This document shows positions 5,843-38,243 of a stretch of DNA of 64,000 bases, in pieces. The DNA comes from a virus: positions 8,949 to 72,948 of IMG/VR virus record IMGVR_UViG_3300036832_000775; one strand, written 5' to 3'. Within the stretch, counting starts at the first letter, position 1; each line of letters starts with the position of its first letter. Below the pieces are notes generated by a model that was not told where the DNA came from, searched no databases, and saw nothing but the letters and a program-made list of their open reading frames with translations. The position numbers and the translations under genes are program-made.

Positions 5843-6640
5843 TTAGTAGAGGGCGAGGCGCGCGCGAGCGCGTCGGCCAGCGAAGCCAAGGAAGACGAAA
5901 CCGAGGAGCATCATTGCCCAAGTGCTCGCCTCCGGCACGGGTGGCCCGCTCAACTGATTTACGAAGCCCGCGTTCGTCCATGCGGTGTCAAAGGTGGTCA
6001 CGTCAAGCTTGCCGTTGTTGCCGATTGAAACATCCACAGCTATCGGCGCGATGACAGTGCCCAGGCCAAACGAGCCGTTGAGCGTCAGGAAGTCCGCGTC
6101 GCTGTTGAAGCCCACCGGGATCACCGCATCCTCGATTTGGAACGTCGTCGGCGCAGTCAACCCTGCAGCCGCGTAGGCGAGGAGGATGTTGGAGAAGCTC
6201 ACCGATGCATCGGCTCCCGGCAAGTTGAACGCCTTGCCGACATCCTGCCCCGCCGAGAGCGTGACCACTGGACCGTCAAACAGACCGTTCGTCTGGTCGA
6301 AGGCCGTCGCCGCCACCGTCGTCTGCGGGCCGAGCGAGAATGCGCCTGCAGAGCCGACGCCGGTCGCGCTCGTGATGGTCGGCAAGGGCGACCCGAGCGG
6401 CTCAAGGAGGAGCACGCGGATCGGCTGGTTGATGGTGTGATTGCCGACCTCGGTGATCGTCAGCGTATTGCTGTCGTTCAGGAGCACCGGATCGGAGCCG
6501 GTCGCGGTGGGCGAGCTGACATGGAACGACGCCGGGTCGCAGAACGTATTGCCCGCGGCGTCGGTAGTGCAAGCGGTCTGCGCGTGAGCCGCGCCAGCCG
6601 CCACGAGGATCGTGGCGGCGAGAAGTGTCTGTCTGAGCAC
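5843..6640 (-). CDS. PEPxxWA-CTERM exosortase-substrate surface protein
   Basis: Signal peptide ending AHA; C-terminal VPEASTWAMMLLGFVFLGFAGRRAR. Confidence 0.9.
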   Translation of the reverse strand: MLRQTLLAATILVAAGAAHAQTACTTDAAGNTFCDPASFHVSSPTATGSDPVLLNDSNTLTITEVGNHTINQPIRVLLLEPLGSPLPTITSATGVGSAGAFSLGPQTTVAATAFDQTNGLFDGPVVTLSAGQDVGKAFNLPGADASVSFSNILLAYAAAGLTAPTTFQIEDAVIPVGFNSDADFLTLNGSFGLGTVIAPIAVDVSIGNNGKLDVTTFDTAWTNAGFVNQLSGPPVPEASTWAMMLLGFVFLGFAGRRARARLALY

Positions 6641-6649
6641 TGGAGCCTC

Positions 6650-7375
6650 CTAATCGGCCAAACGCGGAGCGCGCTGCCGGCTGCGGAAGACCCCAAACAG
6701 GCCCAGCAACCCGAACCCTGCCATCAGCATCGCCCAAGTGGAGGCTTCCGGAACGCCCGTCTCCATGGCTTGATTAAAGCCAGTTATGCTACCCCCGGTT
6801 GTGAGCGCGAGCGATGCACTCTCAGTCATACTAAACGGCGCGAGCGCAGAGAACGCCGCGATGTTCGAGCCCGCGAAGCTGTCGGGGTTGGTCGTCGGCG
6901 TACCAGAGACCGTCTCCAATAAGCTGCCGGGGGTGTTCAGCGGATTCGCGCCCTGCGTATTGAGCGGGTCGGCCCAGAACGAGAGCGAGCTTGGCCCCGA
7001 CCCAACCGCGTTGTTGAAGGTCAGCGAACCGCTGTCGCGGACGAAGGTGACCGGCGCGGCGAAACCAGTGTCGCCAGCGACCAAGCTGATGGTGATCGGC
7101 GCTCCCGACAGGTTCTCGATGTTGGAGCTCGAAAGCTGAAGCTCGTTAGGCGCGCCGAACGAACTCTGGGCCAGCGTCAGCTGGACGAACGCCCCGCCGA
7201 CGCTCTGATCAATGGTTAGGAGGTTGTTCGCGCCGCCGCTGACGTCGCAGGAAAGCTGGCCGTCGAAGCAACTGAACGTGCTCCCGTTCGCGGAGATCGA
7301 GAGCTGCAGCCGCGCATAGGCAGGCGAGGCCGCAATCGCAGACAGAATCGCAGTGGTCACAAGAAGTTTGCGCAT
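6650..7375 (-). CDS. PEPxxWA-CTERM exosortase-substrate surface protein
   Basis: Signal peptide ending PAYA; Ser/Thr-rich body; VPEASTWAMLMAGFGLLGLFGVFRSRQR. Confidence 0.9.
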   Translation of the reverse strand: MRKLLVTTAILSAIAASPAYARLQLSISANGSTFSCFDGQLSCDVSGGANNLLTIDQSVGGAFVQLTLAQSSFGAPNELQLSSSNIENLSGAPITISLVAGDTGFAAPVTFVRDSGSLTFNNAVGSGPSSLSFWADPLNTQGANPLNTPGSLLETVSGTPTTNPDSFAGSNIAAFSALAPFSMTESASLALTTGGSITGFNQAMETGVPEASTWAMLMAGFGLLGLFGVFRSRQRAPRLAD

Positions 7376-11536: not shown

Positions 11537-14500
11537 TCACTGCTTAACCGGGCTGCCGTCATAGTTGAACGCCTTGCCCGTCGTCTTGTTTGTCCAAACT
11601 CCAGTCTGATTGTCGTAGGTGTATTTCCCGCTAGGCAGCCCGGGCGGCCGGACGCCCGAGCGAGCTTTCCGCAGAGAGACGGCATCGTCGATCTTGTTGT
11701 CCTTGACGAACTGATCGTCGTAGTCGCCCAGGCTGAGCGTAGTCGGGCGCTGGCCCTCCTTGGCGTGTCGCCACTTCATGTAGCCCTGGCCGTATTTGTC
11801 TTGGTAATCGAGGACGCCAAGCGCCTGCGCCAGGATGGCGCGGTTCGCCTCCGGCTCCAGCTCGGCGCTGGGCGAGGCCTGCTTGTAGGACGTGATCTCG
11901 GCGACGCGCGGGGTTCCCGGCATGGCCTTGACGGCGTCCATAATCATGGCCGTCGAGTTCTTGACGTACTCCTGGTAGCTGGAGGCCGTGCTCGGATCCA
12001 AGCCGACAGCGCCCGGGTTGAAGCCGGCCGCCTTGATGTAGCGGACGACATCAGCCTTCCAGTCTGCGCCAGCTCCCGGCTTGTAGCCGCTGTCGAGGAG
12101 CCCGATGAGCGCTTCCGCGCGCTGCGCGAGGACCGGCCGGCTGCGGAGCCCCTGGCGCACGTCGGCATCCTGTTCGGACGTCGCCTTGACGTCGGCCTCT
12201 GTCCCCGCCTCCAGGCCTTTCTTGATGCCGGCCGTCCTCGCTTCCCAGGACGCCTTCGCGGCCGCGATCATCGCGTTGCCTTGATCGATGTAGGAATTGC
12301 CGGCCGTGCCGCCGCCAATGTTCATGGCGCCGCCAAGCTTGATCCGCCGCATCCCCTCTATGTAATCCGGGTCGGTTGTGTAAGTGCCGATGTCGGCCCC
12401 AGACGTGCCGGCCCCGGTCCTATCCCCAGCTCCTCCCGCGACCTTCGTCGGCGGAGCTCCGCCCCCACCCGTTCCAGATTGCCCCGCGCCGCCCGTAGGA
12501 GCCCCGCTGGCGCCCGTTCCCCCTCCCAGGGTAGGAATAGACGGGAGAGGACCAACGCCCGTCCCTGAGCCTCCTGTGCTCCCTGTAGAGCCGTCGCCGA
12601 CGTCGATGCCCGCATCACGGAAGGCCGCGATCTGGATTTTGGCCATGCGCTGCGCGATCTGGGTCTGGATGACCTTGAAATCGGCGTCCGCGCCATGCTC
12701 GCGCGCCTCGGCCGACAGATTGGCGATCTGCGCCTGATTGTAGTTCCAGTCCTTCTCCAGGCCCTGCATCTGGCCGAGGTACTTGTTCCCGGCCGCGAAG
12801 CCCTCGCCCATCTGTGTGCCGAGCCAGGGCGAGCGAGACGCCATCATCCCTGCGCCGACCGTCATCATGTAGCCGAACGGGTCGCGCTTCAGCTCATCGC
12901 CCAAGGTCGGAGGATGGCTCGGCTGCCCGCCGCCAGGAGGAATAGCAAACCCGCCGCCGTAGCCTTCCGTAGTGGCCACGGCAGGCTGCGCGCCAGCGCT
13001 TGGGACATCGGCGCCCCCGCCCGCGACCGAGACCGGCGAGGCCTTGCCAGAGCTCAGATAGGCCTGGGCGTACTTGTCGCCCTTCCACGGCGCGAGATTG
13101 ACCCCCTTGCCATGGCTATACATCTGGTCGATCGCGAACTTGCCGACGCCCTGCCATTGGTTCGGGTCAGTCGGATCGTAGCCCGCCTTGCGCGCCTGAT
13201 CCCCGAGCGCGCCAGGATGGATGTTCATCTGAAAATCGCCGAACGAGAACGGCTTGCCTCCCTCGACATCGACGGTCGATCCGCCGACGCCAGGAGCGTA
13301 CAGCCCCTCGGCCTTCGCGACGCCGAGCGCGATGTTTGGATCGGCGCCGGGATAGGTCTTGGTGATGTAATCGCGATACCAGGCGGCTCGCTGCGCAGGA
13401 GTCGTCGCTCTCCGATCAGACGGGACGCCGCCGCCTCCGCCTCCGCCGCCGCCTCCGCCTCCGCCTCCGCCTCCGCCCCCTCCGCTCGGAGCTGGGGCCG
13501 GCGCGGGCGCGGGCGCGGCCCCCGCAAACGGGTCTAACGCCTCTTCGATCGCCGCGTCGCCGCCCTCTTGAAAGTTACCGCGCAGGGAGCCAAGCCCTAC
13601 GCCACCTCCAGTCGCGAAACCTGTATCAAGGTTGAAAGTGTCGTCAGGGAGAGCTGCGAAATCTCCCGACAGATCAGCGCCGCTGACGATATCGCTCGCC
13701 CCGCCGCCTCCGACGTCCCCGGCGCCTCCATCCGATCCCGTCGGCGTCGTCTGCGCCCCGCTCCGGTCCTTGAAGCCCGTCAGGACGGCGCCGGCCTGCT
13801 TCATCAGATCGCCAGGACTCCCCGGCTGAGCGCCGCTCTGGGGCTCTGGCGCTTTAGGCGCCTGGGCCTGCGGCGGACCTGGCCCCAGTCTGCCGCTGCT
13901 GCCGGACGAGGCCTCGATCGCCGCCAGGAACGGATCGATCGAACCGCCCCCCTCCGCAAAGCCCATACGGCCGCCGCCGCCGAACAGATCGCCGAACCCG
14001 CTCGCGGCCTTCGAGGTCGCGAAGGATCCGAGGCCTTCGCCCTGTGAGGTCTGGCCGGACATGCCGAAGCCCTGCGGCGTATAGCCGCCAGTGTTCTCGA
14101 GAGGCGAGGAGCCCATGACGCCGCCGCCGCCCTGGAAGTTAACCGGCCCACCAGAAGCCCGAACGGGAGCGCCGAGATAATCCTCACGCGGCGGGACCCA
14201 GCTCCCGTAATCGGTGTTCGGCGTCGGCCAGGAGCCATGGTTGCCAACGATGTCGGCGTAGTTGCTGAGATTGACGCGGCCTGGCCCGCCGGCTGGGTGA
14301 GCTCCTCTAGTCCGCGCGATATGCCGCGCCGCAGCAATCGCTGGGTGAACAGGCGCTTGAGCTCGAGCGTTCGGGCTGACCCCCGCGGCGACCGCGTCGC
14401 CAGGAACGTAGGTTGAGCCGCGCGCATTGCCGGTCGTTGGCACGAAGTGGCCGGCGGTGATCGGCGGCCCGCCCATGAGGCTCGTGACGTCGCCGCGATA

Positions 14501-17500
14501 GCCGCCTTGCCCAGACGCGCCGCTCAAGGAGCTTGCCGGAAGCGTCCCCGACATCGGCGCGGCGTCTCGCGACGGGACGTCGCCCCCGCTGTCATTGAAG
14601 GTGTCGAAGGTGTCGTCGCTAAGATTGGCGAATATCCTGTCGAGCCATCCGCCGCTCTGCGGCGGCGGCGCCCAGGTGCCGCCTGGGTCCGTCTGGCCGG
14701 GATAGGGCATGTTGCGAGTCTCGGCGGGACTGGACGTATCGCCGCCGTCGGCGCGGCCGATGCGGCCGCCCGTCCACTCGCTCTGGAAGCCCGCGCCTCC
14801 GCCATGGAAGGCCCCTGGCAGATCGAGCTCGTCATGATGCCACATGGGCGTGCCGAACTGATCGCCCTCCGGCGGCATGATCAGTTTCGGCCCGAAGGCG
14901 CCCCCCTCTGTGTGCCCAACCGCGTGTGGCGGGACCATCGGCATCGGGCGCGGAGGCGGCGGCTCGGGCGGCGGAGCCGGGAGCCTCAACGGAGGCTCAT
15001 TAACCCTGCCTTCGATCGGCGGCTCGACCTCGGTCGACGGCGGACGGTACTCGGTCTCGCCGGAGAGCGGTCCGGGTCTGACCGCAGGAACACGGGACTG
15101 GGGCGGGGGCTCGGGAGGAGGCCCCCAGTTCATCGAATGCCCGCCATAAGGCTTCGTCTTCCAGGTCTCATCCAGCGGCTCTGGGGCCGGCTCGGGTGCC
15201 GGCGGCCGGACGACAGTAGGCGGGACGATCGGCGGCTGCCGGAGGAGCGGCCCATGCAGGGGATCGCCGGCTGCGCCAGATCCTGCCGGCCCCGGCGTCG
15301 GCCAGCCAGGATAGCGCGCTGTCGAGGGATGGTCCGGCTGCGGCGTGATGTCATGAGGCTGACCCGTCACCGGATCATGCGCGATGACGCGAGGCTTCAC
15401 GATGCCGCGCGAAGCCGCCGCCTGTGCTCGAGCTCGCCCCGCGAGCTGGCGCTGCACTGCGATGGCTGGCGGCGCCTGCCGCCCTCCAAAGAGGCCAGAG
15501 AGGTCGAGCGCAGTGTAGGTCGGAGGCGTGCGCCCCGAACCGGTCCCCGGTTGAAAGGTAGTGAAGCGGGGGAAACCGCCACGCTGGAAGCCGTCGCGCA
15601 CGTTCGTCCCTCCGATCCCTCCGCCTGCCGATTTTCCGGGCTGGAACATGTGCGGCGTCGGTCCGCCATAAACATCGCTGTAAGAGTGCGCATAGCCAGG
15701 CATGCCCAGCTCGCCGAGGAACCGCCCCATGTCGTTGCCGGGGCCGACTTCCGCCCATTCCTGGCTCGTCCCACCGAGCGCCGCCTGCCTCATCGGCGAC
15801 TGAGGCGCTGGCTGCGATGGCGGGGGCTGCGACAGCGTTTCAGTTCCTGCCGGAACCTTTCCAGGCGTGTAGCCGAACCCGCTGCCGGAGCCGAACCCGC
15901 CGCCGGCACTGCCGCCCGCGCCAGGATCGGCGATGCCGCCGCCTTGGAAGCCCGCCCGCCCGCCGTTGGCGTGACCCGTCATTGCACCGAGGTAAGCCTG
16001 CCTACTCGCAGGCGAGACGCCGGGGGGTGGACGTGGCGGCTGCCACTGCATGGGACCCCCCCAGCCCCCGCCGCTTGGGTTGTTGTGATTTGCGACCGGG
16101 TCGAACGTCGTCGGGACCCATTGGCCTTGCGGCTGGGCTGGCGCAGCGGCGGCCGGAGCGGCGGCCGGAGCGGCGGCGAGGGGTTTCATTTCGGTTCCTG
16201 CCGGGACCTTTCCGGGCGTGTAGCCGAACCCGCCGGCACTGCCGCCCGCGCCAGAGCCGCCCGAGCCACCACCTCCGCCGCCGAAGTATTGATTGGCGAT
16301 GTCGCCGAGCTGGCCGCGAGACAGTCCGCCATATGTCGCGCCAGCTCCGCCAGGGATCCGCGCGCCCCCAATTGCGGGCGGACTCGTGATGCCTCCGGAG
16401 GGAGCGACCCCGCCGCTGCCCGAGCCCCCGCCGAAGAGACCCGCGAGAGAGGCCTCGGCCGAGCCGAATTGCGGCGACGAACCGAGGTCCTGCCAGTTTG
16501 GCGATGGCGAATTGGTGACGGGCGGCATCCACTGGCCGCCGCCGATCGCCAGCGGCGCGGTGAGATCGAACCCCAAGTAGGGGTTCTTAGAACCGCCGCT
16601 CCCCAGCTCCCAAACTGAGGCGGCCATACCAGAGGCTGGCCCCACCTCTTCTCCCGGGCTCCAGCCGCCAACATTCCCTGCCGGGTTCAACGCGCCGCCG
16701 CCCTGGAAACCTTGCCGCTCGCCGCCGGCCATACCGGATGGGCGCAACGGGACAGTCTCAAAGCCGGGGTTAGGATGAACGTCGGCCCCGCTGGCGAGCG
16801 CCATCGAGCCTAAACCCATGCGCGCGCCAGGCACCCCCATCATCATCAGATCTTGCCCAGGCGAGCCGCCTCCGCCGCCGCCTCCGCCTGCCACACCGCC
16901 GAGCGAGCCCAAGCCGCCCATCGCGCCCATCATTTGCGCGCTGCCCATCGGCGCGCCGCCGGAAGCGAAGTGGCCGCGGTCGGCTGCCTCGTCGGTCGCG
17001 CCCTCGTAGTCGACGCCGAGGAGATCGCCAACGCCGATTCGCTTCACATTGCCAGGATCGCGGTAGGCCTCTTCCTGCGCCATGAGGCCGATCTGGGTGC
17101 GCGGGTCGCCGCGGAAGTTGTAGCGGTAGATTTGCTTGCCGTCGTAGGTCTCACCGATCGGCTCGACGTTCTCTTTCGCGCGGATATCAGAGAGACCGAA
17201 CAGGCTGCCGAGCATCCCCAGTCCCTGAAGCCCGGCACCGATCCCTTGGCCGATCGTGTTCGGCGCCGGAGAAGTGGTCTGGCCCGAGGTTGTGCCGCCG
17301 GACAGGCTTCCTGTCCCCTCGACGATGTTCCCCAACCACCCCGTTGTCGTGAACGGATACGCCTGCCCTTGCTGATACATTTGCTGGGCGGCTTGATCGA
17401 TCGCCTGCTGTTCTTGTTGCGGGATCATCCCCGCCTGGATGTTCGCCTGCGCGCCCTGGAGCCCAGCCTGCTGAGCGGTCTGGCCGATCGATCCGAGCTG

Positions 17501-18106
17501 GGACGCTGCCGACAACTGGCGCTGGGCATTGGCTTGCTGCGCACCAAGATTGATCCCTTGCTGGTTCTGCCAGTTGCTCATCGCCTGGTTGAAATTGGAC
17601 TGGTTCAATCCCGCGATCGTCGGCGCCTCGGCGAGCTGCTGCTGATTGGCCAGGATCGATTGACCGATGCCAGCTCTGTCTCCGCCGAACGCGCCCGAGC
17701 TGATGTTCGCGCTGTTCAAGAATTGCGCTTGTTGTTGATTCTGATTGTTCATCTCCGCGGTACTCGCGTCGATGACCGACTTCGTGAACGGGTTCATGAA
17801 GGGCTGGAGCGAACCCATGCCCTGGAATTGCGATGGGTTGACCGGGGCGGCAGCCCCCATCGTCATCGCGCCTGCAGCTCCAAGGTAGGGCTGCGCGGCA
17901 TTCGCGTACTGACTGATCCCACCGACCCCCTGGAGCGTCTGACTCGAGAGCGGGGCGACGAGCTCGCCCTGGTAGGGTTGGTAGGGCTGATTGGCTACGT
18001 TCGTCGCGCGATCGACAAGGCCTTGGTACTCGGCCATCACCTGGGGCGGCGGCCCAGACGACGAGGTCGACGACGTCTGCTGAGTGCCTCCGCCCTTCGA
18101 GCCCAT
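11537..18106 (-). CDS. Giant (2189 aa) ejection polyprotein: Gln-rich N-domain, S74-like chaperone, Gly/Pro-rich linker, lytic-transglycosylase-like domain
   Basis: MGSKGGGTQQT start; SDIRAKENV...IGLMAQE...VDY; ALGVAKAEG...SFGDFQM. Confidence 0.8.
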   Translation of the reverse strand: MGSKGGGTQQTSSTSSSGPPPQVMAEYQGLVDRATNVANQPYQPYQGELVAPLSSQTLQGVGGISQYANAAQPYLGAAGAMTMGAAAPVNPSQFQGMGSLQPFMNPFTKSVIDASTAEMNNQNQQQAQFLNSANISSGAFGGDRAGIGQSILANQQQLAEAPTIAGLNQSNFNQAMSNWQNQQGINLGAQQANAQRQLSAASQLGSIGQTAQQAGLQGAQANIQAGMIPQQEQQAIDQAAQQMYQQGQAYPFTTTGWLGNIVEGTGSLSGGTTSGQTTSPAPNTIGQGIGAGLQGLGMLGSLFGLSDIRAKENVEPIGETYDGKQIYRYNFRGDPRTQIGLMAQEEAYRDPGNVKRIGVGDLLGVDYEGATDEAADRGHFASGGAPMGSAQMMGAMGGLGSLGGVAGGGGGGGGSPGQDLMMMGVPGARMGLGSMALASGADVHPNPGFETVPLRPSGMAGGERQGFQGGGALNPAGNVGGWSPGEEVGPASGMAASVWELGSGGSKNPYLGFDLTAPLAIGGGQWMPPVTNSPSPNWQDLGSSPQFGSAEASLAGLFGGGSGSGGVAPSGGITSPPAIGGARIPGGAGATYGGLSRGQLGDIANQYFGGGGGGSGGSGAGGSAGGFGYTPGKVPAGTEMKPLAAAPAAAPAAAAPAQPQGQWVPTTFDPVANHNNPSGGGWGGPMQWQPPRPPPGVSPASRQAYLGAMTGHANGGRAGFQGGGIADPGAGGSAGGGFGSGSGFGYTPGKVPAGTETLSQPPPSQPAPQSPMRQAALGGTSQEWAEVGPGNDMGRFLGELGMPGYAHSYSDVYGGPTPHMFQPGKSAGGGIGGTNVRDGFQRGGFPRFTTFQPGTGSGRTPPTYTALDLSGLFGGRQAPPAIAVQRQLAGRARAQAAASRGIVKPRVIAHDPVTGQPHDITPQPDHPSTARYPGWPTPGPAGSGAAGDPLHGPLLRQPPIVPPTVVRPPAPEPAPEPLDETWKTKPYGGHSMNWGPPPEPPPQSRVPAVRPGPLSGETEYRPPSTEVEPPIEGRVNEPPLRLPAPPPEPPPPRPMPMVPPHAVGHTEGGAFGPKLIMPPEGDQFGTPMWHHDELDLPGAFHGGGAGFQSEWTGGRIGRADGGDTSSPAETRNMPYPGQTDPGGTWAPPPQSGGWLDRIFANLSDDTFDTFNDSGGDVPSRDAAPMSGTLPASSLSGASGQGGYRGDVTSLMGGPPITAGHFVPTTGNARGSTYVPGDAVAAGVSPNARAQAPVHPAIAAARHIARTRGAHPAGGPGRVNLSNYADIVGNHGSWPTPNTDYGSWVPPREDYLGAPVRASGGPVNFQGGGGVMGSSPLENTGGYTPQGFGMSGQTSQGEGLGSFATSKAASGFGDLFGGGGRMGFAEGGGSIDPFLAAIEASSGSSGRLGPGPPQAQAPKAPEPQSGAQPGSPGDLMKQAGAVLTGFKDRSGAQTTPTGSDGGAGDVGGGGASDIVSGADLSGDFAALPDDTFNLDTGFATGGGVGLGSLRGNFQEGGDAAIEEALDPFAGAAPAPAPAPAPSGGGGGGGGGGGGGGGGGGGVPSDRRATTPAQRAAWYRDYITKTYPGADPNIALGVAKAEGLYAPGVGGSTVDVEGGKPFSFGDFQMNIHPGALGDQARKAGYDPTDPNQWQGVGKFAIDQMYSHGKGVNLAPWKGDKYAQAYLSSGKASPVSVAGGGADVPSAGAQPAVATTEGYGGGFAIPPGGGQPSHPPTLGDELKRDPFGYMMTVGAGMMASRSPWLGTQMGEGFAAGNKYLGQMQGLEKDWNYNQAQIANLSAEAREHGADADFKVIQTQIAQRMAKIQIAAFRDAGIDVGDGSTGSTGGSGTGVGPLPSIPTLGGGTGASGAPTGGAGQSGTGGGGAPPTKVAGGAGDRTGAGTSGADIGTYTTDPDYIEGMRRIKLGGAMNIGGGTAGNSYIDQGNAMIAAAKASWEARTAGIKKGLEAGTEADVKATSEQDADVRQGLRSRPVLAQRAEALIGLLDSGYKPGAGADWKADVVRYIKAAGFNPGAVGLDPSTASSYQEYVKNSTAMIMDAVKAMPGTPRVAEITSYKQASPSAELEPEANRAILAQALGVLDYQDKYGQGYMKWRHAKEGQRPTTLSLGDYDDQFVKDNKIDDAVSLRKARSGVRPPGLPSGKYTYDNQTGVWTNKTTGKAFNYDGSPVKQ
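13428..13482. repeat. GGC/GGA microsatellite encoding a poly-Gly tract
   Basis: CCGCCT/CCG iterations; run of about 19 Gly. Confidence 0.8.
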
Positions 18107-18110
18107 GGCT

Positions 18111-18677
18111 CTACTCCGCTGCCACGCTATTCGCTGGCGTCATCTCCGCAAGGCGCTGGGCGAAAGGAATCCGGTTAGGTGGCGCGTAACAGAAGAACGC
18201 GCCGAACTGCGGGAGCCAGCGGCGATAGAGCCTGATCTTCGCCGCGGTCCGAATGTTCGAGAACACGCCGACGGTGAGATCGAGGCCGATCTGATCGGAG
18301 CATTGCTTCGCGTAAGCGATGAGGTCTGCGGCGAAGCCCATGCGCCGGTAGTCCGGCTTCACGTAATTGAAAAACTCGAGGAGCTGCCAGTCGTCCGAGT
18401 ACCAGATCGGCTCGATCAGCAAGAAGATCGCGCCCTTGAGATCGTGACGATCGCCGATCACGCCGAGGATGCCGCGGCGTTCCGGCCCCTGGCGAATAGC
18501 GAGCCGGATCATCGCGGCGACCTTGCCGAGATTGAGCGGATGATAAGGTTGTTCGGCGTGCATCATCTTGCACATCTCGAGGATGCCGAACTCGTCATGC
18601 TCATCGGCCATGCGGATATTCAGGCGCGGCGGCGCGCTCCGCAGCTCAGCCTCGTGTACGCGAGAAAACTCTTTCAC
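18111..18677 (-). CDS. GNAT-fold acetyltransferase
   Basis: YVKPDYRRMGFAADLIAYAK motif A; LYRR; usual position before ejection genes. Confidence 0.85.
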   Translation of the reverse strand: MKEFSRVHEAELRSAPPRLNIRMADEHDEFGILEMCKMMHAEQPYHPLNLGKVAAMIRLAIRQGPERRGILGVIGDRHDLKGAIFLLIEPIWYSDDWQLLEFFNYVKPDYRRMGFAADLIAYAKQCSDQIGLDLTVGVFSNIRTAAKIRLYRRWLPQFGAFFCYAPPNRIPFAQRLAEMTPANSVAAE

Positions 18678-18982
18678 GAGTCGAGCTCCTTCTCGAACTC
18701 CGGCCAGAGGTAGAGCTCCTTGCGGCCGAAGGCATCCTTCGCGAAGCGGCTGATCTCATCGGGCGGATCGAACGCCGTCGGCGTGCCCTCGACCTTGAGC
18801 TGCGCGAGCCCGAGGTAGCGCATCGACGGTCCAGGCTGCACGAGCCCTGCAGGGTCGGGCGGATCGGCATATGGAATCCCGGTCGGATGCAGCATGACCG
18901 GCAGCTCGGCCGCGATCTGCGGCGCGAGCGCGGCGGCCGGCGCTGCGATGCCAAGCAGCTTGAGGAATCCTCGTCTGTTCAT
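18674..18982 (-). CDS. Small protein with twin-arginine signal
   Basis: MNRRGFLKLLGIAAPAAALA; ATGA-coupled. Confidence 0.75.
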   Translation of the reverse strand: MNRRGFLKLLGIAAPAAALAPQIAAELPVMLHPTGIPYADPPDPAGLVQPGPSMRYLGLAQLKVEGTPTAFDPPDEISRFAKDAFGRKELYLWPEFEKELDS

Positions 18983-19716
18983 TTGGCTGGCCCCGGCAAT
19001 CGTTTGATCGTGTCGGCGGCCTCTTTCTTCAACGTCAGGACCCATCTGTCGAGGATGAGGTGCCCCTTATCGACATTGCCATCCCCCATTTTTGCGACCT
19101 CACTCGGCGAGATTACAAACTCGCCGCCACTCGCATTGATCGGAACCGCGCCATTCCTCGTCGGCAGATTGGTCGCTGCGCCGCCATGCTTCTGCTTGTC
19201 AGTCAGCGCCGGGTTCTCCTCCGACATGCCCTGCGGATAGAAATTCGGCGGCGTGAAGTGCATCGGCGGCGGCTTGCCCCTGGGTATCTTGATGCCCTTG
19301 CCGACCTTGAGCGCCGGAGATGGCGCGCCCCATGGCGCCTTTGGCGCGCCCCACGGGCTGCCAAACATCATCTTCAATTGGCTCATGCCGCTGACGGTGT
19401 TCCCTTCGCCCAAGTGCGAGACCGCCCAAGCCGGGACGACGTAACTTCCATCGGGGACATGCATGGGAACGTCGTCGGCGCGGCCGGCGCCTGCCGACAT
19501 GATGCCGCCAGTGAACGGCGACTCGGGACTATCCTCGATGCCGCCGCCTGTCTCGCCGCCTTCCGCGCGCCCAGGCCGCATCAGCATGCGGTCGCTGACC
19601 CCAGCTCCGAATTTCGGCGTCGCCATTGGTTTCGGGAGCGTCGGCATGCGAGGCGGCTTACTCGCACCGAGCATGCGCTGGATGCGGATAGCCGACGGGT
19701 TGTAGCCGTTCGCCAT
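18979..19716 (-). CDS. Virion-associated protein with a tape-measure C-terminal-like module
   Basis: GAGRADDVPMHVPDGSYVVPA and VPINASGGEFVISP; RAEGG motif. Confidence 0.7.
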   Translation of the reverse strand: MANGYNPSAIRIQRMLGASKPPRMPTLPKPMATPKFGAGVSDRMLMRPGRAEGGETGGGIEDSPESPFTGGIMSAGAGRADDVPMHVPDGSYVVPAWAVSHLGEGNTVSGMSQLKMMFGSPWGAPKAPWGAPSPALKVGKGIKIPRGKPPPMHFTPPNFYPQGMSEENPALTDKQKHGGAATNLPTRNGAVPINASGGEFVISPSEVAKMGDGNVDKGHLILDRWVLTLKKEAADTIKRLPGPAK

Positions 19717-20014: not shown

Positions 20015-22252
20015 TCAGTTGCGACCGTCAGGAGCGAACCGGAACTTGAAACCGCCCAACCGTGCAAAAGACCCAAGGTCATTGCCTTGGATCTCCGCGA
20101 AGAAATAGCGCCCTCTGCACCGGACCTCAACTGCCCCGGTGGCATTGGTGACAATAAAAGGCCCGTAGGGGATCCAGGTTTCTCGCGGGTCGTCTGGATA
20201 CTCGGCCGTGTAGAGGATGATTTGGACCTGGGCGCTGACGCTCTGCGGTTGTTGCCAGCGCCGCCAGCGCATGTCGGGAATCATGTAGTCGATGAAGACT
20301 TTGTCCTCGCCCTCGCTCAGCATGAAGAAGCCCGTCTGAACCATCCAATTGATCGGCTGGCCGTTGGCGTCCGCCCCCATCTCATGCTGGTGGATCATCG
20401 AGTTGACCCCGCCGGAGACAACCATCGACGAGACGGGATGGCCGAAGATGTTGTTGTCGAGCCAGGCCGTGACATGGATTGGAGTCTCGCCGACCATGCC
20501 TTCCTGCGGGGTCGAGAGCGAATAGTCCCACTCCCCGGTAACCGGGTTGAACTTCACCCAGCTGTCGTTCTCGCCATCCACCGAAGCCATCGAGGGGAAG
20601 TGAAAGGCGACCTCGTCAAAGCCAGAGTTAGCCGCGCCTCGGATATGGTGGAAGTAGAAGTAGTCCCCGTCGCTGTCCCTGGCGTTGTTTAGATTCTTGA
20701 TGATCACGTCCCAGACGTCGCACTGGAGCCGCTGCACGGTGCCGTTAGAGTACATCCAGAAGGCATCGCGCGACATCCAGAAGACTTGCGGGCCGTAGAT
20801 GGCCCAGGCGTGCTTGCCGATAAGTCCACAGCCCTGCGCCACCTCGTTGAAGCCAAATACATTGGGATATCCGATGTAGGCCATCACCCACAAACCAACA
20901 TCTGTCCAAAGCATAGCCTGCTGGGGTCCTTGGCAGCCACCTATGATTTTACTTCCGCGCGTCAGTCGATATGTTCCAGCTTGATTGGAAACCGCCGCGG
21001 TCCAGGTGTTATAGTTGGCGTTATCGCACCAGGCGACGAGCATGGGGTCCTGCACCTGGCCCGTGCTTGCTCCGTAGGCGATGATTTGCTGTTCGGGCAT
21101 GCCGATGAAGAAGCCCGAGGCATAGCTCGGCCCGTTGCCGATCCGCTCCGAGTTCTGAATCCCGCTCGTCGGGTCCCAGGCGAACAGCGGCCCGTTGATC
21201 GCGCTCGAGATCAGCTGCGAGCCCCAGTTAGCGAGCGTCCAGTCGTCGCCGGAGATCGCGCCGAACCCAACCGTCCCCTCCGGCGGCGGGTATGGCGTCC
21301 CCGATAGCGGCGACGGTTGCTGGCCTACGCCCCAGCCGCCGGTGCCCCAGCCGCCGACGCCCCAACCTGAGTTCGGCAGGAGCGGCGCTTGCGTGACCCA
21401 ATAGATGAGCTGCGGCGCGCCACTGAGGTTCGCTTCATTCGTTGTGGCCGACGTCGGGCACGATTCCTGCGCGAAGATGATGAAGTGGTTCGCGTCGATG
21501 ACCTCTTGGACTGGATAGAAGCCCTGCAGCGTCACCGTCCCTGCAGGATTAGTGTTATCGCCGATGTACGTCGGCATCGGGATTGAGAAGTACGCGCCCG
21601 CAACCAGCCCATGGCTCGGCAGATAGACGTTGACGACCTCGGTGTTCGCGTTCGAGGTGAATGTGGCGACGCACGGCGTCGTCGCGGTGGCGGCGCTGAC
21701 CGCGGAGAATGGCAGCGTGATCGTGTACTGCAGATTGGTCAGCATCGTTGTGATCGGGTAGGTGCCGAAGATCACGATGCCGCCGACGGCGACATGGCAC
21801 TCGATCTGGACCGAGCCGTAATTGTTTATCTGGGCATTGGGGTCGTTGATCGTGACGATCGGCGAGCCCGCCGTTGTCGTAAAGGTCTGACCGTTGGTCG
21901 AGACCGCATACTGCGGCGTGATGGTTTGATTGGCCGGCCGGCCGCCTTGGGTCGGCGTTAGGACGTTCAGGCCAGCTGAGCCCGCAATCGCGAGATGGTA
22001 ACTGAGATTGAGGTCCATCCAGGCGCATAGGTCGCGCGTGATGCCATTGACCGTTTGAGTGGCTGAGCCGGTAGGCGGACCGCTGGCGACGTTCCAGAGC
22101 CCCGTCGCGAAAAAATTGATCCAGCCGCCATACTTCTCCGGCAGGCCGCCCTTCCAGCGAATCATGTTCGAGGCGACGATGTTCGCCTGAAGCAGCGTCG
22201 GAGTCTGAAGCGCCTTAACTCCTGGCTGGATCTTGACGGTCTCGAAGGGCAT
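20015..22252 (-). CDS. Tail nozzle / stabilization protein (tubular protein B-like)
   Basis: 745 aa beta-rich; RWKGGLPEKYGGW, WCDNANY..W, CGLIG, PDGR terminus. Confidence 0.8.
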   Translation of the reverse strand: MPFETVKIQPGVKALQTPTLLQANIVASNMIRWKGGLPEKYGGWINFFATGLWNVASGPPTGSATQTVNGITRDLCAWMDLNLSYHLAIAGSAGLNVLTPTQGGRPANQTITPQYAVSTNGQTFTTTAGSPIVTINDPNAQINNYGSVQIECHVAVGGIVIFGTYPITTMLTNLQYTITLPFSAVSAATATTPCVATFTSNANTEVVNVYLPSHGLVAGAYFSIPMPTYIGDNTNPAGTVTLQGFYPVQEVIDANHFIIFAQESCPTSATTNEANLSGAPQLIYWVTQAPLLPNSGWGVGGWGTGGWGVGQQPSPLSGTPYPPPEGTVGFGAISGDDWTLANWGSQLISSAINGPLFAWDPTSGIQNSERIGNGPSYASGFFIGMPEQQIIAYGASTGQVQDPMLVAWCDNANYNTWTAAVSNQAGTYRLTRGSKIIGGCQGPQQAMLWTDVGLWVMAYIGYPNVFGFNEVAQGCGLIGKHAWAIYGPQVFWMSRDAFWMYSNGTVQRLQCDVWDVIIKNLNNARDSDGDYFYFHHIRGAANSGFDEVAFHFPSMASVDGENDSWVKFNPVTGEWDYSLSTPQEGMVGETPIHVTAWLDNNIFGHPVSSMVVSGGVNSMIHQHEMGADANGQPINWMVQTGFFMLSEGEDKVFIDYMIPDMRWRRWQQPQSVSAQVQIILYTAEYPDDPRETWIPYGPFIVTNATGAVEVRCRGRYFFAEIQGNDLGSFARLGGFKFRFAPDGRN

Positions 22253-22255
22253 GGT

Positions 22256-23059
22256 TCACCCCGCAGGAGCCCCAGCTGGAGCCGGCATCGACGGCGATTG
22301 ATACGACGACATCATGCCCCAGCCGAGAAACTTCTTCCTGGTCTCTTCGCTCTTCGCCGAGCTCAGCAGCGTTTGGAATTGCGTCTCCCAGCTCACCGCC
22401 ATGCGCGGGTCGTCGGCCTGGGCGCCGTAGTTCTTGCGGTAGCCCGAGGCGGAGACCATCGCGCAGGCGAGGAAGAGATCTGGCAGGACCTGGGTCAGGA
22501 ATGTGGTCTGCGTCCCGTCGGCCGGCGCGGCCAGGTAGAGCGGGACCGGACGCGCAGAGCCATGCACCAGGAAATAATAGGCCTGGTCCGGCATCGGCCC
22601 GAACACGAGCGTCTGGTCGTCGAGGAGCGCGAAGCGCACCGGCTGCCCAGTGGTTTCAGGGTTCGGAAAGACGCCGCTGTAGATCGCGTCAAGGTAATCG
22701 ACCGTGCTCGGGAGGCAGGGCTCTCCGCCAACCGTCGGGGCCACGCCAGGAATGGGCGGGAGGACCGCATTGGGCGGCTCGACCCGGACCCGATCGACGA
22801 CGAGAATTTGCTGCGGTGGGGATGGGGTCGAATAGACCGCGCCGCCGACCGCGAAGCTCTGCGAGCGCCGGAAAGGAGCCATCTGGAACCACTGCCGCGC
22901 CTCTGCGGTCAGGAGGTCAAGCTCGCGATAGCAGCGCTGTTCGGCATAATCGATGATGGTAGGCAGGACGGCGACGAAGTTCGGTTCGTTCACGTTGTTG
23001 TTCGGAACGACCATCTCGATCGCGAGCGCGGTTTGGAAAGTTGTATAATTATAACTCAT
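22256..23059 (-). CDS. Head-tail adaptor (tubular protein A-like)
   Basis: IIDYAEQRCYREL; GPMPDQAY; PDLFLACAMV. Confidence 0.75.
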   Translation of the reverse strand: MSYNYTTFQTALAIEMVVPNNNVNEPNFVAVLPTIIDYAEQRCYRELDLLTAEARQWFQMAPFRRSQSFAVGGAVYSTPSPPQQILVVDRVRVEPPNAVLPPIPGVAPTVGGEPCLPSTVDYLDAIYSGVFPNPETTGQPVRFALLDDQTLVFGPMPDQAYYFLVHGSARPVPLYLAAPADGTQTTFLTQVLPDLFLACAMVSASGYRKNYGAQADDPRMAVSWETQFQTLLSSAKSEETRKKFLGWGMMSSYQSPSMPAPAGAPAG

Positions 23060-28321: not shown

Positions 28322-28488
28322 CTACTGCCAAACTTCTTGCGCTTGACGAGATAGCCGCTGAACCCATGCGCGCGCAGAATCTTGCTGATCGTGCCTTGGC
28401 TCACGCCCAGCTCGACCGCGATCTCGTCTTGCTTCCAGCCCTTGGCGCGCAACGCCTTGACCTTCTCGATGAAGCCCTCGTCAATCAT
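28318..28488 (-). CDS. 56-aa HTH protein (below ORF-track cutoff)
   Basis: MIDEGFIEKVKALRAKGWKQDEIAVELGVSQGTISKILR. Confidence 0.65.
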   Translation of the reverse strand: MIDEGFIEKVKALRAKGWKQDEIAVELGVSQGTISKILRAHGFSGYLVKRKKFGSR

Positions 28489-29245
28489 AGTAGCTCTGGA
28501 TCATCGGCAAGAGGTAGATCGAGCCGTCTTCTGTGTCCTGCGTCGCGGCAATCCCATAGGCCTCGTCGGCCTGCGCCTTGCGCTGCGCTTCGAGATCCTG
28601 CGCGTAATGCGTCGCCAATCGATAAGCGAGGCCAGCGCAGGCCGCATCGAGCCAGCGATAGGGGATGTCGAGCTGCATCGCCCCGCGATGCATTGCATCG
28701 TACTGCTGACCATAGCTCCAGACGTGGACATGATAGACGTCATTGGGCGTCGGCCAGAACGTGATCGTCTGCGCGATCGTGCGGTCATACCAGAACGACG
28801 TCGGCCGGCTTTGCTGCGCCTTGCGCGGCTGCATCGTGTACTCTTGCCGCGTCATCGGCGTGATCGTGAGCTCGCTTTCATCTGGCGGGTCGCCCGTGCC
28901 GATCGTGACGTTGAGCACCATGATGTTGGTCGAGGGCAGCGGATAGGTCGCGAGGCCGACTTGCGTGTCGAAGGTTTGCTCGACGACCTTCCAGAGGTTC
29001 GGCCCTTTGTTGCTCCACTGCACTTGAAGCAGGTTCGCTTCCATCCACGCCTGGTGCAGATGCTCGGCGAGCACCATCGGCCCGCGGATCCGGATCCGCG
29101 AGAGCGCGTTGAGCGTGCATTCGCCGAGCGACGGGAAGAAGTTGAAGCTGCCGCTGGTACGGGATGGCTGCGGCGGCGGCGGGTTGTAGGCGCCGATCGA
29201 CGAGCCGCCGACAATGAACGTGCCGATGGCGCTCTGCAGGCTCAT
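28481..29245 (-). CDS. Head-tail connector / adaptor
   Basis: WSNKGPNLW; QSRPTSFWYDR; WPTP; DIPYRWLDAACAGLAY. Confidence 0.75.
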   Translation of the reverse strand: MSLQSAIGTFIVGGSSIGAYNPPPPQPSRTSGSFNFFPSLGECTLNALSRIRIRGPMVLAEHLHQAWMEANLLQVQWSNKGPNLWKVVEQTFDTQVGLATYPLPSTNIMVLNVTIGTGDPPDESELTITPMTRQEYTMQPRKAQQSRPTSFWYDRTIAQTITFWPTPNDVYHVHVWSYGQQYDAMHRGAMQLDIPYRWLDAACAGLAYRLATHYAQDLEAQRKAQADEAYGIAATQDTEDGSIYLLPMIQSYYD

Positions 29246-30807: not shown

Positions 30808-31191
30808 TTATGGGACCTTTTCGCTTTCGGCCATGATCTTTCGCTGTTTCGGGCCGGAGCCCGCATCGTGGGTCTTGGGATGAAGGTCCGCGCCGACGCC
30901 GCCGCCGCTCGCTCGAGCTGCCCGCCCCATCGAGGGTTTCCTGCCTCCGCCGCTGATCGTCGAACCGCCATAGGCCCGCTTGAGCGAAGCCCCATCAGGA
31001 GCTGCGCCGCCGGTCGCCAGCTTCGCGATCTTGCCGCCCTTCGCGCGGAAGATTCCCGAGCCGCGCGAGAGCGTGGCGTCCGGCTCGTTCTTGGGATGAG
31101 CGCCGCGCGCCTCGCGCTCGACGTTCTTGGCGGATTGCTTTTTGAGAGCGCCTCCTGACGCCCTGCCTTCGCGACTTGTTTCGCCTCGCAT
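30808..31191 (-). CDS. Small basic protein with multiple AxGG motifs
   Basis: RASGG, RAKGGKIAKLATGG, RAYGG, RASGG. Confidence 0.75.
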   Translation of the reverse strand: MRGETSREGRASGGALKKQSAKNVEREARGAHPKNEPDATLSRGSGIFRAKGGKIAKLATGGAAPDGASLKRAYGGSTISGGGRKPSMGRAARASGGGVGADLHPKTHDAGSGPKQRKIMAESEKVP

Positions 31192-34667: not shown

Positions 34668-35725
34668 GATCGCGCTCCCAACATCTTGCCGCGACCCTGC
34701 GCATCAAGCAGCTCGGCGGCGTATTCCTCATCAGTCATGCCCAGGACGTCGCGCGCATGCTCTCGCTGGCGAGGGGTGAGAGAGACTGGCGTCCCGCGGA
34801 TCCGGCCCGTGCGCAGGCTCGGCGCTTCAGCTCGAGCTGGCGCGCCCATGCTGCGCGCTTGACCCATCTGGCGCTGGCCCTGGCGCGTCATTGGCGACAT
34901 TTGCCCTCCCATGGCCTCTTCAAGCTTCTCTTCCAGCTTCTCGAAATAGGCGTCTGTTTCCGGAATCAGGCCCAGCGAGTTGGTGACGTAGTTGTGCGCG
35001 CCGTCGACCCGATTGATGCCGGCGCGGTCTTTGACCATTTCGGGGTGCGATCGGATCCAGGCGGCGCTTTTCGGGAAGCCAGTCCGATCGAGGTGACTCG
35101 AGAGCGTTTGGACGTTCCCCTGCATCTGCTGTGCAGGGTCGACGTATCCTGGTTGGCGCGGCTGCGGCTGCGGTTGCTGCCGTTGCTGCTGCGGTTGCTC
35201 GGTTGAGAGCCCCTCGCGCATCTCCATTAGCCGCAGCAAATTCGCGCGGCTGTCCGAAATCATGATTTGGGCTTCTGACGCGGCCTTGTGGTCGCCGCGA
35301 TCGAGCGCTTGCTGGAAATAGACCCGCGCCTGTTCGGAATCGCGCTTCGCGCCCTCGATCGCCTGGTCGACCATCGAGACATTCGAGGTCGCGAGCCCGC
35401 GCTCGGCCTGGATGCGCGCCTGGTGCTCGGCTTGCGCCACCTGGGCGGCGCGCTGCGCTACGTTTTGCTGGTACGCGAGCTGCCGTTTCAGCTCGGAGAC
35501 GCCATCGTCCTCCGGCGCAGGCTCCGGCGAGGCGCGCATCGGCAGCTCGCCCTCGCCGCCGGCCCCATTCGAGCGCAGATCCGGCTTTTTGTCGCCCTTG
35601 CGGACCGTCTCGCCGGCAATGACAGTTTTCGGCGGCAGCCGCTCCTCGGGCGGAATGTCGTCGTCTTCGATAAGCGAGCCGAAAGCGGTCTGCTGTTCGG
35701 GGTCTTCTACTTCTCGCACTGCCAT
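34664..35725 (-). CDS. Scaffolding protein
   Basis: Acidic coiled coil; C-terminal LTPRQREHAR..LGMTDEEYA. Confidence 0.75.
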   Translation of the reverse strand: MAVREVEDPEQQTAFGSLIEDDDIPPEERLPPKTVIAGETVRKGDKKPDLRSNGAGGEGELPMRASPEPAPEDDGVSELKRQLAYQQNVAQRAAQVAQAEHQARIQAERGLATSNVSMVDQAIEGAKRDSEQARVYFQQALDRGDHKAASEAQIMISDSRANLLRLMEMREGLSTEQPQQQRQQPQPQPRQPGYVDPAQQMQGNVQTLSSHLDRTGFPKSAAWIRSHPEMVKDRAGINRVDGAHNYVTNSLGLIPETDAYFEKLEEKLEEAMGGQMSPMTRQGQRQMGQARSMGAPARAEAPSLRTGRIRGTPVSLTPRQREHARDVLGMTDEEYAAELLDAQGRGKMLGARS

Positions 35726-36132
35726 CAGAACACCGCGTCCGGGTGGCCTAGCTTGCCCTTGATGTAGACGTCCGGAATCAGCCTGCACTCACGGTCACCG
35801 ATCATGCACTTGAGACCGTCAGAAGCCCGGTAGACCACCCAGTCCCCAGGCGTGACGTCTTGTCCGTAAAACTTGACCGGGCCGTCATCGACGAAGGCCC
35901 GCAGCCCCTTCTTGAGGACCATGCCGACCTTGCCCTGGTAGCGGTCCTCATCGACCGCTTCGTCGGCGATCTGCAGACCGCTCGCCGTATGCGTCGCCGG
36001 CCGGATGTAGATCGCGACGAGCACTTGCTGGTTCATCGGCTCGACGATCTCGAGATCGGCGCCGACGGCGTTCCAGATGACGTCGCGAGGGTCCTCGACG
36101 TGTATGGTTCGGAGTCTATGATGCGCGGGCAA
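35725..36132 (-). CDS. GroES-like co-chaperonin
   Basis: EPMNQQVLV, TASGL, GMVLKKG, VTPGDWVVY, RLIPD. Confidence 0.85.
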   Translation of the reverse strand: MPAHHRLRTIHVEDPRDVIWNAVGADLEIVEPMNQQVLVAIYIRPATHTASGLQIADEAVDEDRYQGKVGMVLKKGLRAFVDDGPVKFYGQDVTPGDWVVYRASDGLKCMIGDRECRLIPDVYIKGKLGHPDAVF

Positions 36133-36594: not shown

Positions 36595-36821
36595 TTCGTC
36601 AGGCCTTTGACGGCCCACATAACCGCCTCTTCGACGCGCGTCACAGCAAGAGAGGCCTCACGGCTCGCGGGCACATTGGCCTCGATGGCTCGAATAAGCC
36701 CGAGGCCCATGTCCTTGAGGTGCGTCATCCCGGCCTTCTCCGCGTCGGTCAGAACGCGGTACTGGTGGCGCATCGTATTGTTGACGGTGCGATCGTCGCT
36801 TGCGCTGTCGACATGCGTCAT
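36591..36821 (-). CDS. Acb2/Tad1-like anti-defence nucleotide sponge
   Basis: YRVLTDAEKAGMTHLKDMG and REASLAVTRVEEAVMWAVK resemble the Acb2/Tad1 helical hairpin. Confidence 0.75.
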   Translation of the reverse strand: MTHVDSASDDRTVNNTMRHQYRVLTDAEKAGMTHLKDMGLGLIRAIEANVPASREASLAVTRVEEAVMWAVKGLTK

Positions 36822-37951
36822 TCGGCCAGCTCAATCTTCCCGCTATTGTTGCGCTTGGCGTTCGCCATCCGGCCCTGGCCGGAGCCTGCACCAAACTTCT
36901 GACTGATGCGGCCGCCGCTCGCGCGACCTGGCATGCCTGGGGGCATCATGTGTGGGGGGAGTCCTGGCGGCATGCCGCCAGGCGGAGCGCCAGCTGGCCC
37001 CATCGGCGCGCCTGGCGGCGGCCCCATCGGAGGAGGACCTCCAGGTCCTGCGCCAGGAGGCCCAACGGGTGGCATCGGCGGCCGCGGCGGCGGCATCGGC
37101 GGCGGGACCGGCCCAGGAGCGGCCATAGGCGGCGGAGCCGGCGGTTGCTGTCCCTGCCCGTGCCCGACGATCACATTGACGACGGTCTTGCCCTTGCCCT
37201 TGCCCTTCGTCCGGCCGCCGCGCGCGCGGGGGACCCGGCCGCCGGCAGCCTGGCGCGGCGGCTCGGCGGCCTCATCAGAGCCAATGCCGCCCTGGCCTTT
37301 CGGCGCTCCGACAGATCTCCCGCCGAGACCGCCGGTAATGAAGTCGTAGTATTCATGCTGACCAGGAATCGAAGTGTCTAACCACTCGGGCTTCTGTTCC
37401 GCGTAGACATCTTTCTGGCCGAGCACGTCTCTTTCTGGGCCGCCTCTCCAGCGCCCGATTCGGCCGCCTTTGGCGCGAATCAGCGGCCGATCGCCGTAGC
37501 TTTTCGGGCCGCCATCGGTGACCTTGGAAATATCGCGCGTCTTGCCACCATTGGCGCGCGCGACTCGACCGCCCTTGGCGCGGGTGGGAGGATAATTCTC
37601 GCCAGTGAACCGATCCTTGCCGGATGCGTCCTCGTTCGCCATGGTCCGGCCAGCTTGGGTGAACTCGTCTTTGGCAGTCGCCTGTCCGCCGAGCGAGCGC
37701 CCGATTCGGCCGCCGGCAGCTCGTGCGGCGCGCCCAAGCGACGGCGCCCTCGCGGCTCCGCCGGTAGCGAAGGCCGAGCAATCGCTCGTCTTGGCGGCTG
37801 CCCGCCCATAATCGTCAGCGGACGCGCCCTTGTCGCCGTTGCCGCCGTTGTTTTTGCCTGACGCCGCAAACTTTTGCAGTTTGTCGGTCGTAAAGGCCTT
37901 TTGAGAGTTCGCGCCCATGGCGGGGACCTTTCTGGGGTCCCAGCCTTTCAC
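36818..37951 (-). CDS. Basic, Pro-rich head protein with about 10 xxGG motifs
   Basis: RAAGGRIGRSLGG, RAKGGRVARANGG, RAKGGRIGRWRGG, QAAGGRVPRARGG, RASGGRI. Confidence 0.75.
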   Translation of the reverse strand: MKGWDPRKVPAMGANSQKAFTTDKLQKFAASGKNNGGNGDKGASADDYGRAAAKTSDCSAFATGGAARAPSLGRAARAAGGRIGRSLGGQATAKDEFTQAGRTMANEDASGKDRFTGENYPPTRAKGGRVARANGGKTRDISKVTDGGPKSYGDRPLIRAKGGRIGRWRGGPERDVLGQKDVYAEQKPEWLDTSIPGQHEYYDFITGGLGGRSVGAPKGQGGIGSDEAAEPPRQAAGGRVPRARGGRTKGKGKGKTVVNVIVGHGQGQQPPAPPPMAAPGPVPPPMPPPRPPMPPVGPPGAGPGGPPPMGPPPGAPMGPAGAPPGGMPPGLPPHMMPPGMPGRASGGRISQKFGAGSGQGRMANAKRNNSGKIELAE

Positions 37952-38024: not shown

Positions 38025-38243
38025 ATGATGGCACAACTTCCCCCGCCGGATCATCCGGCCTGGCAGCAATGGGCGCGGACGAGCCCGGTCCTCGCCGGCA
38101 TGCTTCAACGCGGCGACCCGCTCACGCGCGGCACCTGGCTGCGGCGCAGTTATGTGTTCGATGAAGTTCCTGACCCCGTGCCCCCCGAGGTCGAACAGCA
38201 GATGCCGCCGCCCTTCCGGCAGCTAAATGAGGATCAGGGCTGA
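38025..38243 (+). CDS. Counter-oriented small moron
   Basis: Own promoter and GGAGTCGA RBS. Confidence 0.7.
   Translation: MMAQLPPPDHPAWQQWARTSPVLAGMLQRGDPLTRGTWLRRSYVFDEVPDPVPPEVEQQMPPPFRQLNEDQG

Follow-up and report, generated by a model that had tools for sequence, protein, structure and literature searches.

What can a segment of a tape-measure protein be doing as a gene of its own in a phage that has genes for adaptor and nozzle but none recognized as a tape measure? The question is raised by a minus-strand ORF of 245 amino acids in the stretch of DNA analysed here (the window), which comprises 64 kb out of a 72,948-base virus record. A preliminary description of the locus had likened a module repeated in this ORF to the C-termini of many tape measures, and had proposed that the separate protein binds or cleaves AxGG peptides in trans.

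The ORF represents a real gene, and a widespread one. Third codon positions have a GC content of 0.78, versus 0.63 for the plus-strand ORF overlapping the same interval. A word-based search retrieved 90 homologues, many of them on contigs of 40 to 78 kb, and a search of 1.84 billion proteins with a family profile made from an alignment of 33 of these gave 4453 cluster representatives at E ≤ 0.001, of which 1086 reached E ≤ 1e-30; these homologues and profile matches rule out a spurious ORF. Pattern scans found a relative on at least 584 viral contigs, and the domain-bearing ORFs (143 ORFs from 225 loci) are between 164 and about 1006 aa long (median 218 aa). The repeated module is called hook below, a term used for part of the JBD30 tape measure, and the protein can be divided as follows:

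18979..19716, minus strand: tandem-hook protein, whole ORF (245 aa plus stop codon)
19570..19716, minus strand: variable N-terminal region, residues 1-49, with a short conserved helix at 8-15; in relatives DUF6496 or an enzyme cargo stands here instead
19555..19569, minus strand: RAEGG, residues 50-54, an [RK]AxGG motif and candidate processing site, identical to the residues around the T5 pb2 cut
19357..19521, minus strand: hook 1, residues 66-120, with an FTGG lead-in, a beta-hairpin (83-94) and helices (96-102 and 107-118)
19192..19356, minus strand: Pro/Gly-rich linker, residues 121-175, of poorly conserved length (pLDDT < 55)
19180..19191, minus strand: KHGG, residues 176-179, a degenerate motif copy ahead of hook 2; G178 and G179 are invariant in the family alignment
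19000..19167, minus strand: hook 2, residues 184-239, with a beta-hairpin (190-202) and helices (204-210 and 215-239), pLDDT 85-94
18982..18999, minus strand: LPGPAK, residues 240-245, a C-terminal tail conserved among the family ORFs

The duplication of a module of about 40 residues within this protein is real, and both peptides that the preliminary description had quoted for the two copies are encoded on the minus strand, at residues ~76-96 and ~189-204. A Smith-Waterman alignment of the N- and C-terminal halves scores 52, versus 30.6 +/- 5.7 for 500 shuffles, three of which reached 52. When a profile was made of each half (residues 60-125 and 170-245), the one matched the other over 40 columns (hhalign 94.2%, E 1.1e-7), and in the six-frame translated window each half-profile retrieved the other half alone (E 1.4e-4 and 7e-3). 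Sixteen hook sequences from eight proteins could be aligned without gaps, and this alignment served as our module profile; one Val and four Gly are common to all of them and frame a hairpin, a short helix and a G-x-G-(N/D/S) turn. An AlphaFold2 model built with the family alignment has a mean pLDDT of 66.6 and a pTM of 0.52, with about 140 of the 245 residues below a pLDDT of 70. Both modules are modelled alike and confidently (pLDDT 82-94), each as a beta-hairpin followed by two helices, and the N-terminus and the Pro/Gly-rich linker (121-180) are without order in the model. This predicted fold agrees with the description of the JBD30 hook, a short beta-hairpin and two helices at tape-measure residues 1022-1066, which is itself a prediction (PMC11445458). 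No Pfam or NCBIfam model matched the tandem-hook family and no solved relative was found: Foldseek searches with the model gave nothing better than E 1 in the PDB and only unnamed relatives in BFVD, the family and module profiles found no credible match among PDB sequences, and the ESM Atlas returned only viral clusters without a name, the closest named entry being a crAss cargo domain at 0.82, under the lead level of the tool.

Profile comparisons establish that the module is homologous to a segment which tape measures carry near the C-terminus. By nozzle similarity, the nearest cultured relatives are the podovirus-like phage DSL-LC04 and pelagiphage HTVC027P. A single terminal hook is present in the 759-aa annotated tape measure of the former and in gp82 of the latter (E 3.4e-5 and 4.2e-7, respectively, in a small database); both proteins are encoded downstream of the nozzle and represent bridging forms. 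The DSL-LC04 stretch (type 2 below) matched 404 phage records; nearly all matches listed are tape measures, from phages of Mycobacterium, Gordonia, Arthrobacter, Pseudomonas, Burkholderia and Vibrio, in which the segment lies 80-430 residues from the C-terminus. The consensus that the preliminary description had given for tape-measure C-termini is thus found nearly letter for letter in the DSL-LC04 protein and in the tape measures of these records. For a type-2 profile of seven sequences, the match probability is 91.3% against the module profile (E 9.4e-7) and 79.7% against the whole family (E 1.5e-5, 46 columns); of the single hooks, hook 2 gives 88.8% and hook 1 gives 63.6%.

The link to the tape measure of lambda is probable, judging from shorter alignments. 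Residues 751-773 of gpH align weakly with hook 2 as a single sequence (E 0.009), and a tblastn search found the gpH stretch 745-785 in 1037 phage records; among the 40 matches listed, those with an annotation are tape measures, and a minority are unannotated or 'hypothetical'. In six of eight further phages fetched, those with an annotated gene, the stretch lies about 40-130 residues from the C-terminus. A search with the C-terminal region of gpH gave only near-identical E. coli proteins among the 120 matches listed, from which no diverse profile was possible; the lambda-type profile was therefore taken from tblastn matches spread over the results and comprises nine sequences, lambda and the eight further phages. 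Compared with the module profile, it gives 61.3% (E 7.9e-5; 24 columns aligned). Between the two tape-measure types the value is only 56%, so that the tandem-hook protein is as close to type 2 as the lambda type and type 2 are to each other. A genome search with the module profile found no candidate in lambda gpH, and such a search is thus too insensitive for so short a module. Within the cleaved C-terminal fragment gpHC, residues 733-782 share with the module the order of an AxGG motif, about 14 residues, a GEFV hairpin, a G-x-G-N turn and a second AxGG; in contrast, the similarity itself spans only 22-24 columns, and the segment falls outside both Pfam domains of gpH, TMP_2 (54-256) and Tape_meas_lam_C (627-701). 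It belongs to the part of the cleaved fragment (~690-817) that cryo-EM left unresolved (PMC12617516). For both types pooled, nearly all of the 85 annotated matches listed are tape measures, and a minority of the listed matches are unannotated or 'hypothetical'.

Two tape measures with PDB entries contain the type-2 segment, JBD30 gp46 and Douge gp16, for which only the last 33-42 residues are modelled. The type-2 match in JBD30 gp46 (999-1074) encloses the published hook. Douge gp16 (PDB 8zdo chain) carries two copies, at 958-1025 and 1413-1472, some 450 residues apart, and duplication of the module is therefore not unique to the podovirus family. The tandem-hook protein shares with type-2 tape measures (JBD30 gp46, Douge gp16 and those of the 404 records) profile homology, the predicted fold and flanking [FY/RK]AxGG motifs. 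The two differ in architecture: here two hooks in tandem form the extreme C-terminus of a stand-alone 245-aa protein in a phage with nozzle and adaptor, whereas tape measures are 900-1700 residues long and hold a single hook (Douge has two) internally, 40-430 residues before the end. The 245-aa protein contains no TMP Pfam domain, and only three matches to TMP PHROGs (E ~0.002) were found for 33 family members. That it is itself a true tape measure is ruled out by its length and by the surrounding nozzle and ejection genes.

A role for the hook has been proposed in long-tailed phages. [quoted passage not shown] In T5, pb2 is cut after R1127. Once the receptor is bound, the 42-43 residues that precede the cut occupy a crevice between hub subunits and serve as an anchor for the expelled pb2* (PMC10038345). 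The anchor (T1085-R1127) showed no significant profile similarity to the module when pb2 was taken from AY543070 (hhalign below 1%, no HMM match with a positive score); the link to T5 thus rests on the structural comparison of the JBD30 authors, in which the experimentally seen anchor is likened to a hook that is itself prediction-based (PMC11445458).

The AxGG motif, which accompanies the hooks, is real. The preliminary description had each module copy preceded by an xxGG motif. Such motifs are indeed present (RAEGG at 50-54, FTGG at 67-70 and KHGG at 176-179), but the one ahead of the second copy lacks the alanine. Among 106 distinct family ORFs in viral loci, A.GG occurs within 35 residues upstream of hook 1 in 83 and within 25 residues upstream of hook 2 in 100, and a basic residue precedes the last A.GG in 68 and 91 of them, respectively. 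The tape-measure hook has an aromatic-A-x-G-G before it and again after it, with invariant GG columns in the lambda type and an FAxGG consensus in type 2; by the above counts the family shares this association of hook and flanking AxGG. The residue before the tape-measure motif is mostly aromatic rather than basic, and one common protease is not implied. In T5 pb2 (AY543070), the published cut falls within residues 1127-1131, R|AEGG, the same five residues as at 50-54 of the tandem-hook protein. T5 is the one case in which the meaning of the motif is known, and there it is a cleavage site, which makes the tandem-hook protein a likely substrate; given this identity, its RAEGG is more likely a processing site than a motif that the protein reads. 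The arrangement differs in that the T5 motif follows the anchor, whereas here a motif stands before each hook. We found no passage in the papers that notes R|AEGG of T5 as a motif, and full-text literature searches returned nothing on an AxGG/GEFV motif of tape measures.

Two other predicted proteins of the window are rich in the basic form of the motif. A 377-aa protein (36818-37951, minus strand) has six [RK]A.GG versus 0.23 expected, a count reached by none of 1000 shuffles, and a 127-aa protein (30808-31191, minus strand) has four versus 0.14 expected, again reached by none of 1000. Both are basic, glycine-rich and of low complexity, and the 377-aa ORF is less certain to be coding (its GC3 is 0.72, and plus-strand ORFs that overlap it have a similar GC3).

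The flanks named in the preliminary description, the nozzle gene on one side and the GNAT and ejection genes on the other, were borne out, as was the status of the gene as a stand-alone one: adaptor and nozzle genes are present, and no ORF of the window that we scanned matched a tape-measure family. Its direct placement between nozzle and GNAT needs amending, since a 91-aa ORF and a 102-aa ORF share the interval. The neighbours that matter here are:

20015..22252, minus strand: nozzle protein (phrog_3287), upstream in 73/73 loci with enough flank
18111..18677, minus strand: GNAT acetyltransferase, downstream in 69/69 loci with enough flank
11537..18106, minus strand: 2189-aa DNA ejection protein (phrog_4287 at residues 1-368), downstream in 45/45 loci
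38234..42265, minus strand: 1343-aa polyvalent protein, whose residues 874-1332 (the DUF7178 part) are fused ahead of the tandem hooks in a related locus, L083

Along the minus strand, the portal is followed by the 1343-aa polyvalent protein, capsid genes, an SU10-type adaptor, two fibres with S74 chaperones, a second SU10-type adaptor, the nozzle, the 91-aa ORF, the tandem-hook gene, the 102-aa ORF, the GNAT acetyltransferase, the 2189-aa ejection protein and a 707-aa protein. The counts given above derive from the best 80 loci and required flanks of more than 3 kb for the nozzle, 700 nt for GNAT and 2.5 kb for the ejection protein; a median of 28 nt separates the matches of the tandem-hook gene and of GNAT. 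The gene thus holds a fixed position between the nozzle and a large ejection protein. This is the slot of podovirus ejection proteins such as gp13 and gp14 of T7 and gp7 and gp20 of P22, whose gene positions we take to correspond; the comparison is one of position only, and the tandem-hook protein matches none of the PHROG or Pfam families of such proteins.

The 102-aa ORF (18674-18982, minus strand) shares an ATGA overlap, its own start with the stop codon of the tandem-hook gene. It passes the NCBIfam Tat-signal model (20.2 bits; cut-off 16.7), which places a gene for an exported protein inside the block of ejection genes, and was not matched in the 80 related loci. The 2189-aa ejection protein contains 119 GG dipeptides and a match to the S74 chaperone of endosialidase at residues 306-345 (23.6 bits).

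In relatives, the two hooks are joined to other domains. Among the top 150 profile matches, the two-hook unit forms the C-terminus of proteins of up to 1395 aa, and these long forms occupy the same slot as the 245-aa gene. The domains ahead of the hooks are DUF7178 (L083), InPase (L168), ART-PolyVal (L037) and DUF6496 (L017); five other long relatives had no Pfam match in this region. The DUF7178-bearing extension is homologous to the corresponding part of the 1343-aa polyvalent protein of the window (31% identity, E 2e-44). Domains of polyvalent proteins are therefore fused to the hooks in relatives (ART-PolyVal, InPase, DUF7178), and the 245-aa protein of the window has none. A.GG is enriched 1.5- to 11-fold in ten long fused relatives, strongly so in eight of them (at most 7 of 500 shuffles reach the count), and in one of the proteins, P0114, the motifs flank the ADP-ribosyltransferase domain. 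The long relatives resemble polyvalent proteins in both respects, the domains ahead of the hooks and the enrichment in A.GG. It has been argued that the domains of polyvalent proteins are packaged and injected (Iyer et al. 2017). The main text of that paper contains neither 'tape' nor 'glycine', and hook and motif do not appear to be described in it. The polyvalent protein of the window itself comprises a SleB-type cell-wall hydrolase, LPD23, a DUF6782 metallopeptidase-like match (under the cut-off) and DUF7178.

The fixed position in the ejection block, the placement of the hooks at the C-terminus behind a variable cargo and the homology to a segment linked to docking in tail tips lead us to infer that the tandem-hook protein is part of the virion and belongs to the apparatus by which a short-tailed phage ejects its DNA. 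The conserved part of the protein would be a tandem pair of the hook module of tape measures, by which the protein itself, and in relatives also the cargo, is docked in the tail channel. We hold this reading with slightly better than even confidence. In long-tailed phages the hook region would settle in the tail tip once this has opened, and so keep the expelled tape measure tethered to the tail, as has been seen for a comparable stretch in T5 (PMC10038345). Here, the two hooks and the LPGPAK tail may dock the protein in the nozzle or the tail channel in an analogous manner, and its flexible N-terminal part would leave first on infection. In relatives, an N-terminal enzyme (ADP-ribosyltransferase or pyrophosphatase) could thereby be delivered to the host. 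In the 245-aa protein, the [RK]AxGG motifs ahead of each hook would probably serve as sites of proteolytic processing or as hinges.

Several other roles are conceivable for a protein in this position. It might act as a plug or gatekeeper that seals the nozzle of the mature particle and is then released or retained, with no part in tethering or delivery. The gene directly follows the nozzle gene region in all 73 loci, the C-termini of tape measures seal the tail tip in Douge and T5 (PMC10038345 for T5), and the protein of the window carries no enzyme cargo, all of which would suit a plug; the enzymes ahead of the hooks in relatives occupying the same slot are, however, hard to square with a pure plug, and about half of the protein is predicted to be disordered. 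We therefore regard this role as unlikely. Small, partly disordered proteins encoded between tail genes are often chaperones, and the protein might accordingly be a scaffold or chaperone for the complex of nozzle and ejection proteins that is absent from mature particles. Such a role is made highly improbable by the homology to a part of the tape measure that stays in the particle, by the fusion to enzymes expected to act in the host and by the strong conservation of the extreme C-terminus, where LP[GP]P lies inside the last 12 residues in 96 of the 106 distinct family ORFs.

The role originally proposed, that the module binds or cleaves AxGG peptides in trans, on the 377-aa, 127-aa and polyvalent proteins, now seems very unlikely. 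It would account for the occurrence of hooks and A.GG together in every context seen (the family, both tape-measure types and T5), for the position of the T5 cut directly after the anchoring stretch and for the strong enrichment of [RK]A.GG in the 377-aa and 127-aa proteins; moreover, the enzymes that cut lambda gpH and T5 pb2 have not yet been named (PMC12617516), and the family has invariant polar residues (R79, D81, N106, E199, H219 and D223). Nevertheless, no similarity to a peptidase family, solved structure or fold was detected in Pfam, NCBIfam, PDB sequences, the ESM Atlas or Foldseek searches of the PDB and BFVD. The polar invariants differ between the copies: hook 1 lacks those of hook 2 (E199, H219 and D223), and no invariant column of the tape-measure versions corresponds to H219 or D223. 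The repeats thus share no catalytic set, and there is no common candidate active site. A hairpin-helix unit of 40 residues is also small for an enzyme, the corresponding stretch of T5 was seen as a structural anchor (PMC10038345), and the protein has the motif in cis, as one would expect of a substrate sooner than of an enzyme. In addition, the 1343-aa protein has a DUF6782 metallopeptidase-like match (E 9.6e-5, under the Pfam cut-off), and such a domain was given a role in polyvalent-protein processing by Iyer et al. A complex prediction for residues 60-245 of the tandem-hook protein and residues 55-175 of the 377-aa protein scored 0.00 in both runs; made without controls, it is not evidence either way.

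A further idea, to which we assign only a small likelihood, is that hook and [RK/FY]AxGG together form a self-contained cassette of tape measures, podovirus ejection proteins and polyvalent proteins, in which the hook positions the AxGG site for cleavage, either by itself or by recruiting a protease of host or phage. If true, this would explain the cutting of lambda gpH and T5 pb2 as well as a domain-by-domain release of multi-enzyme cargo after docking in the tail.

The family, which counts at least 4453 representative clusters and occurs on no fewer than 584 viral contigs, has received neither a name nor a Pfam or NCBIfam model and lacks a cultured host system; in the phage collection searched, tandem hooks were found in no cultured phage and in a single metagenomic record. 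If the hooks are a docking device, short-tailed phages would reuse a piece of the tape measure, and the hooks would mark proteins injected by abundant freshwater and marine short-tailed phages, ADP-ribosyltransferases and pyrophosphatases among them. Being identical to the mapped T5 cut, the motif also becomes a specific candidate for the site at which lambda gpH is cut and for the processing sites of polyvalent proteins.

Some further genes of the window deserve mention. Its one tail module contains two separate SU10-type adaptor genes (22256-23059 and 28481-29245, both minus strand), with the two fibre genes between them. A phage-encoded Cpn10 (GroES-like) protein is found between the portal and capsid genes (35725-36132, minus strand; E 9e-7, over the Pfam cut-off). 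Finally, two adjacent proteins (5843-6640 and 6650-7375, both minus strand) have a PEP-CTERM motif at the C-terminus (27.4 and 26.4 bits; cut-off 20.7), an unusual feature for a phage.
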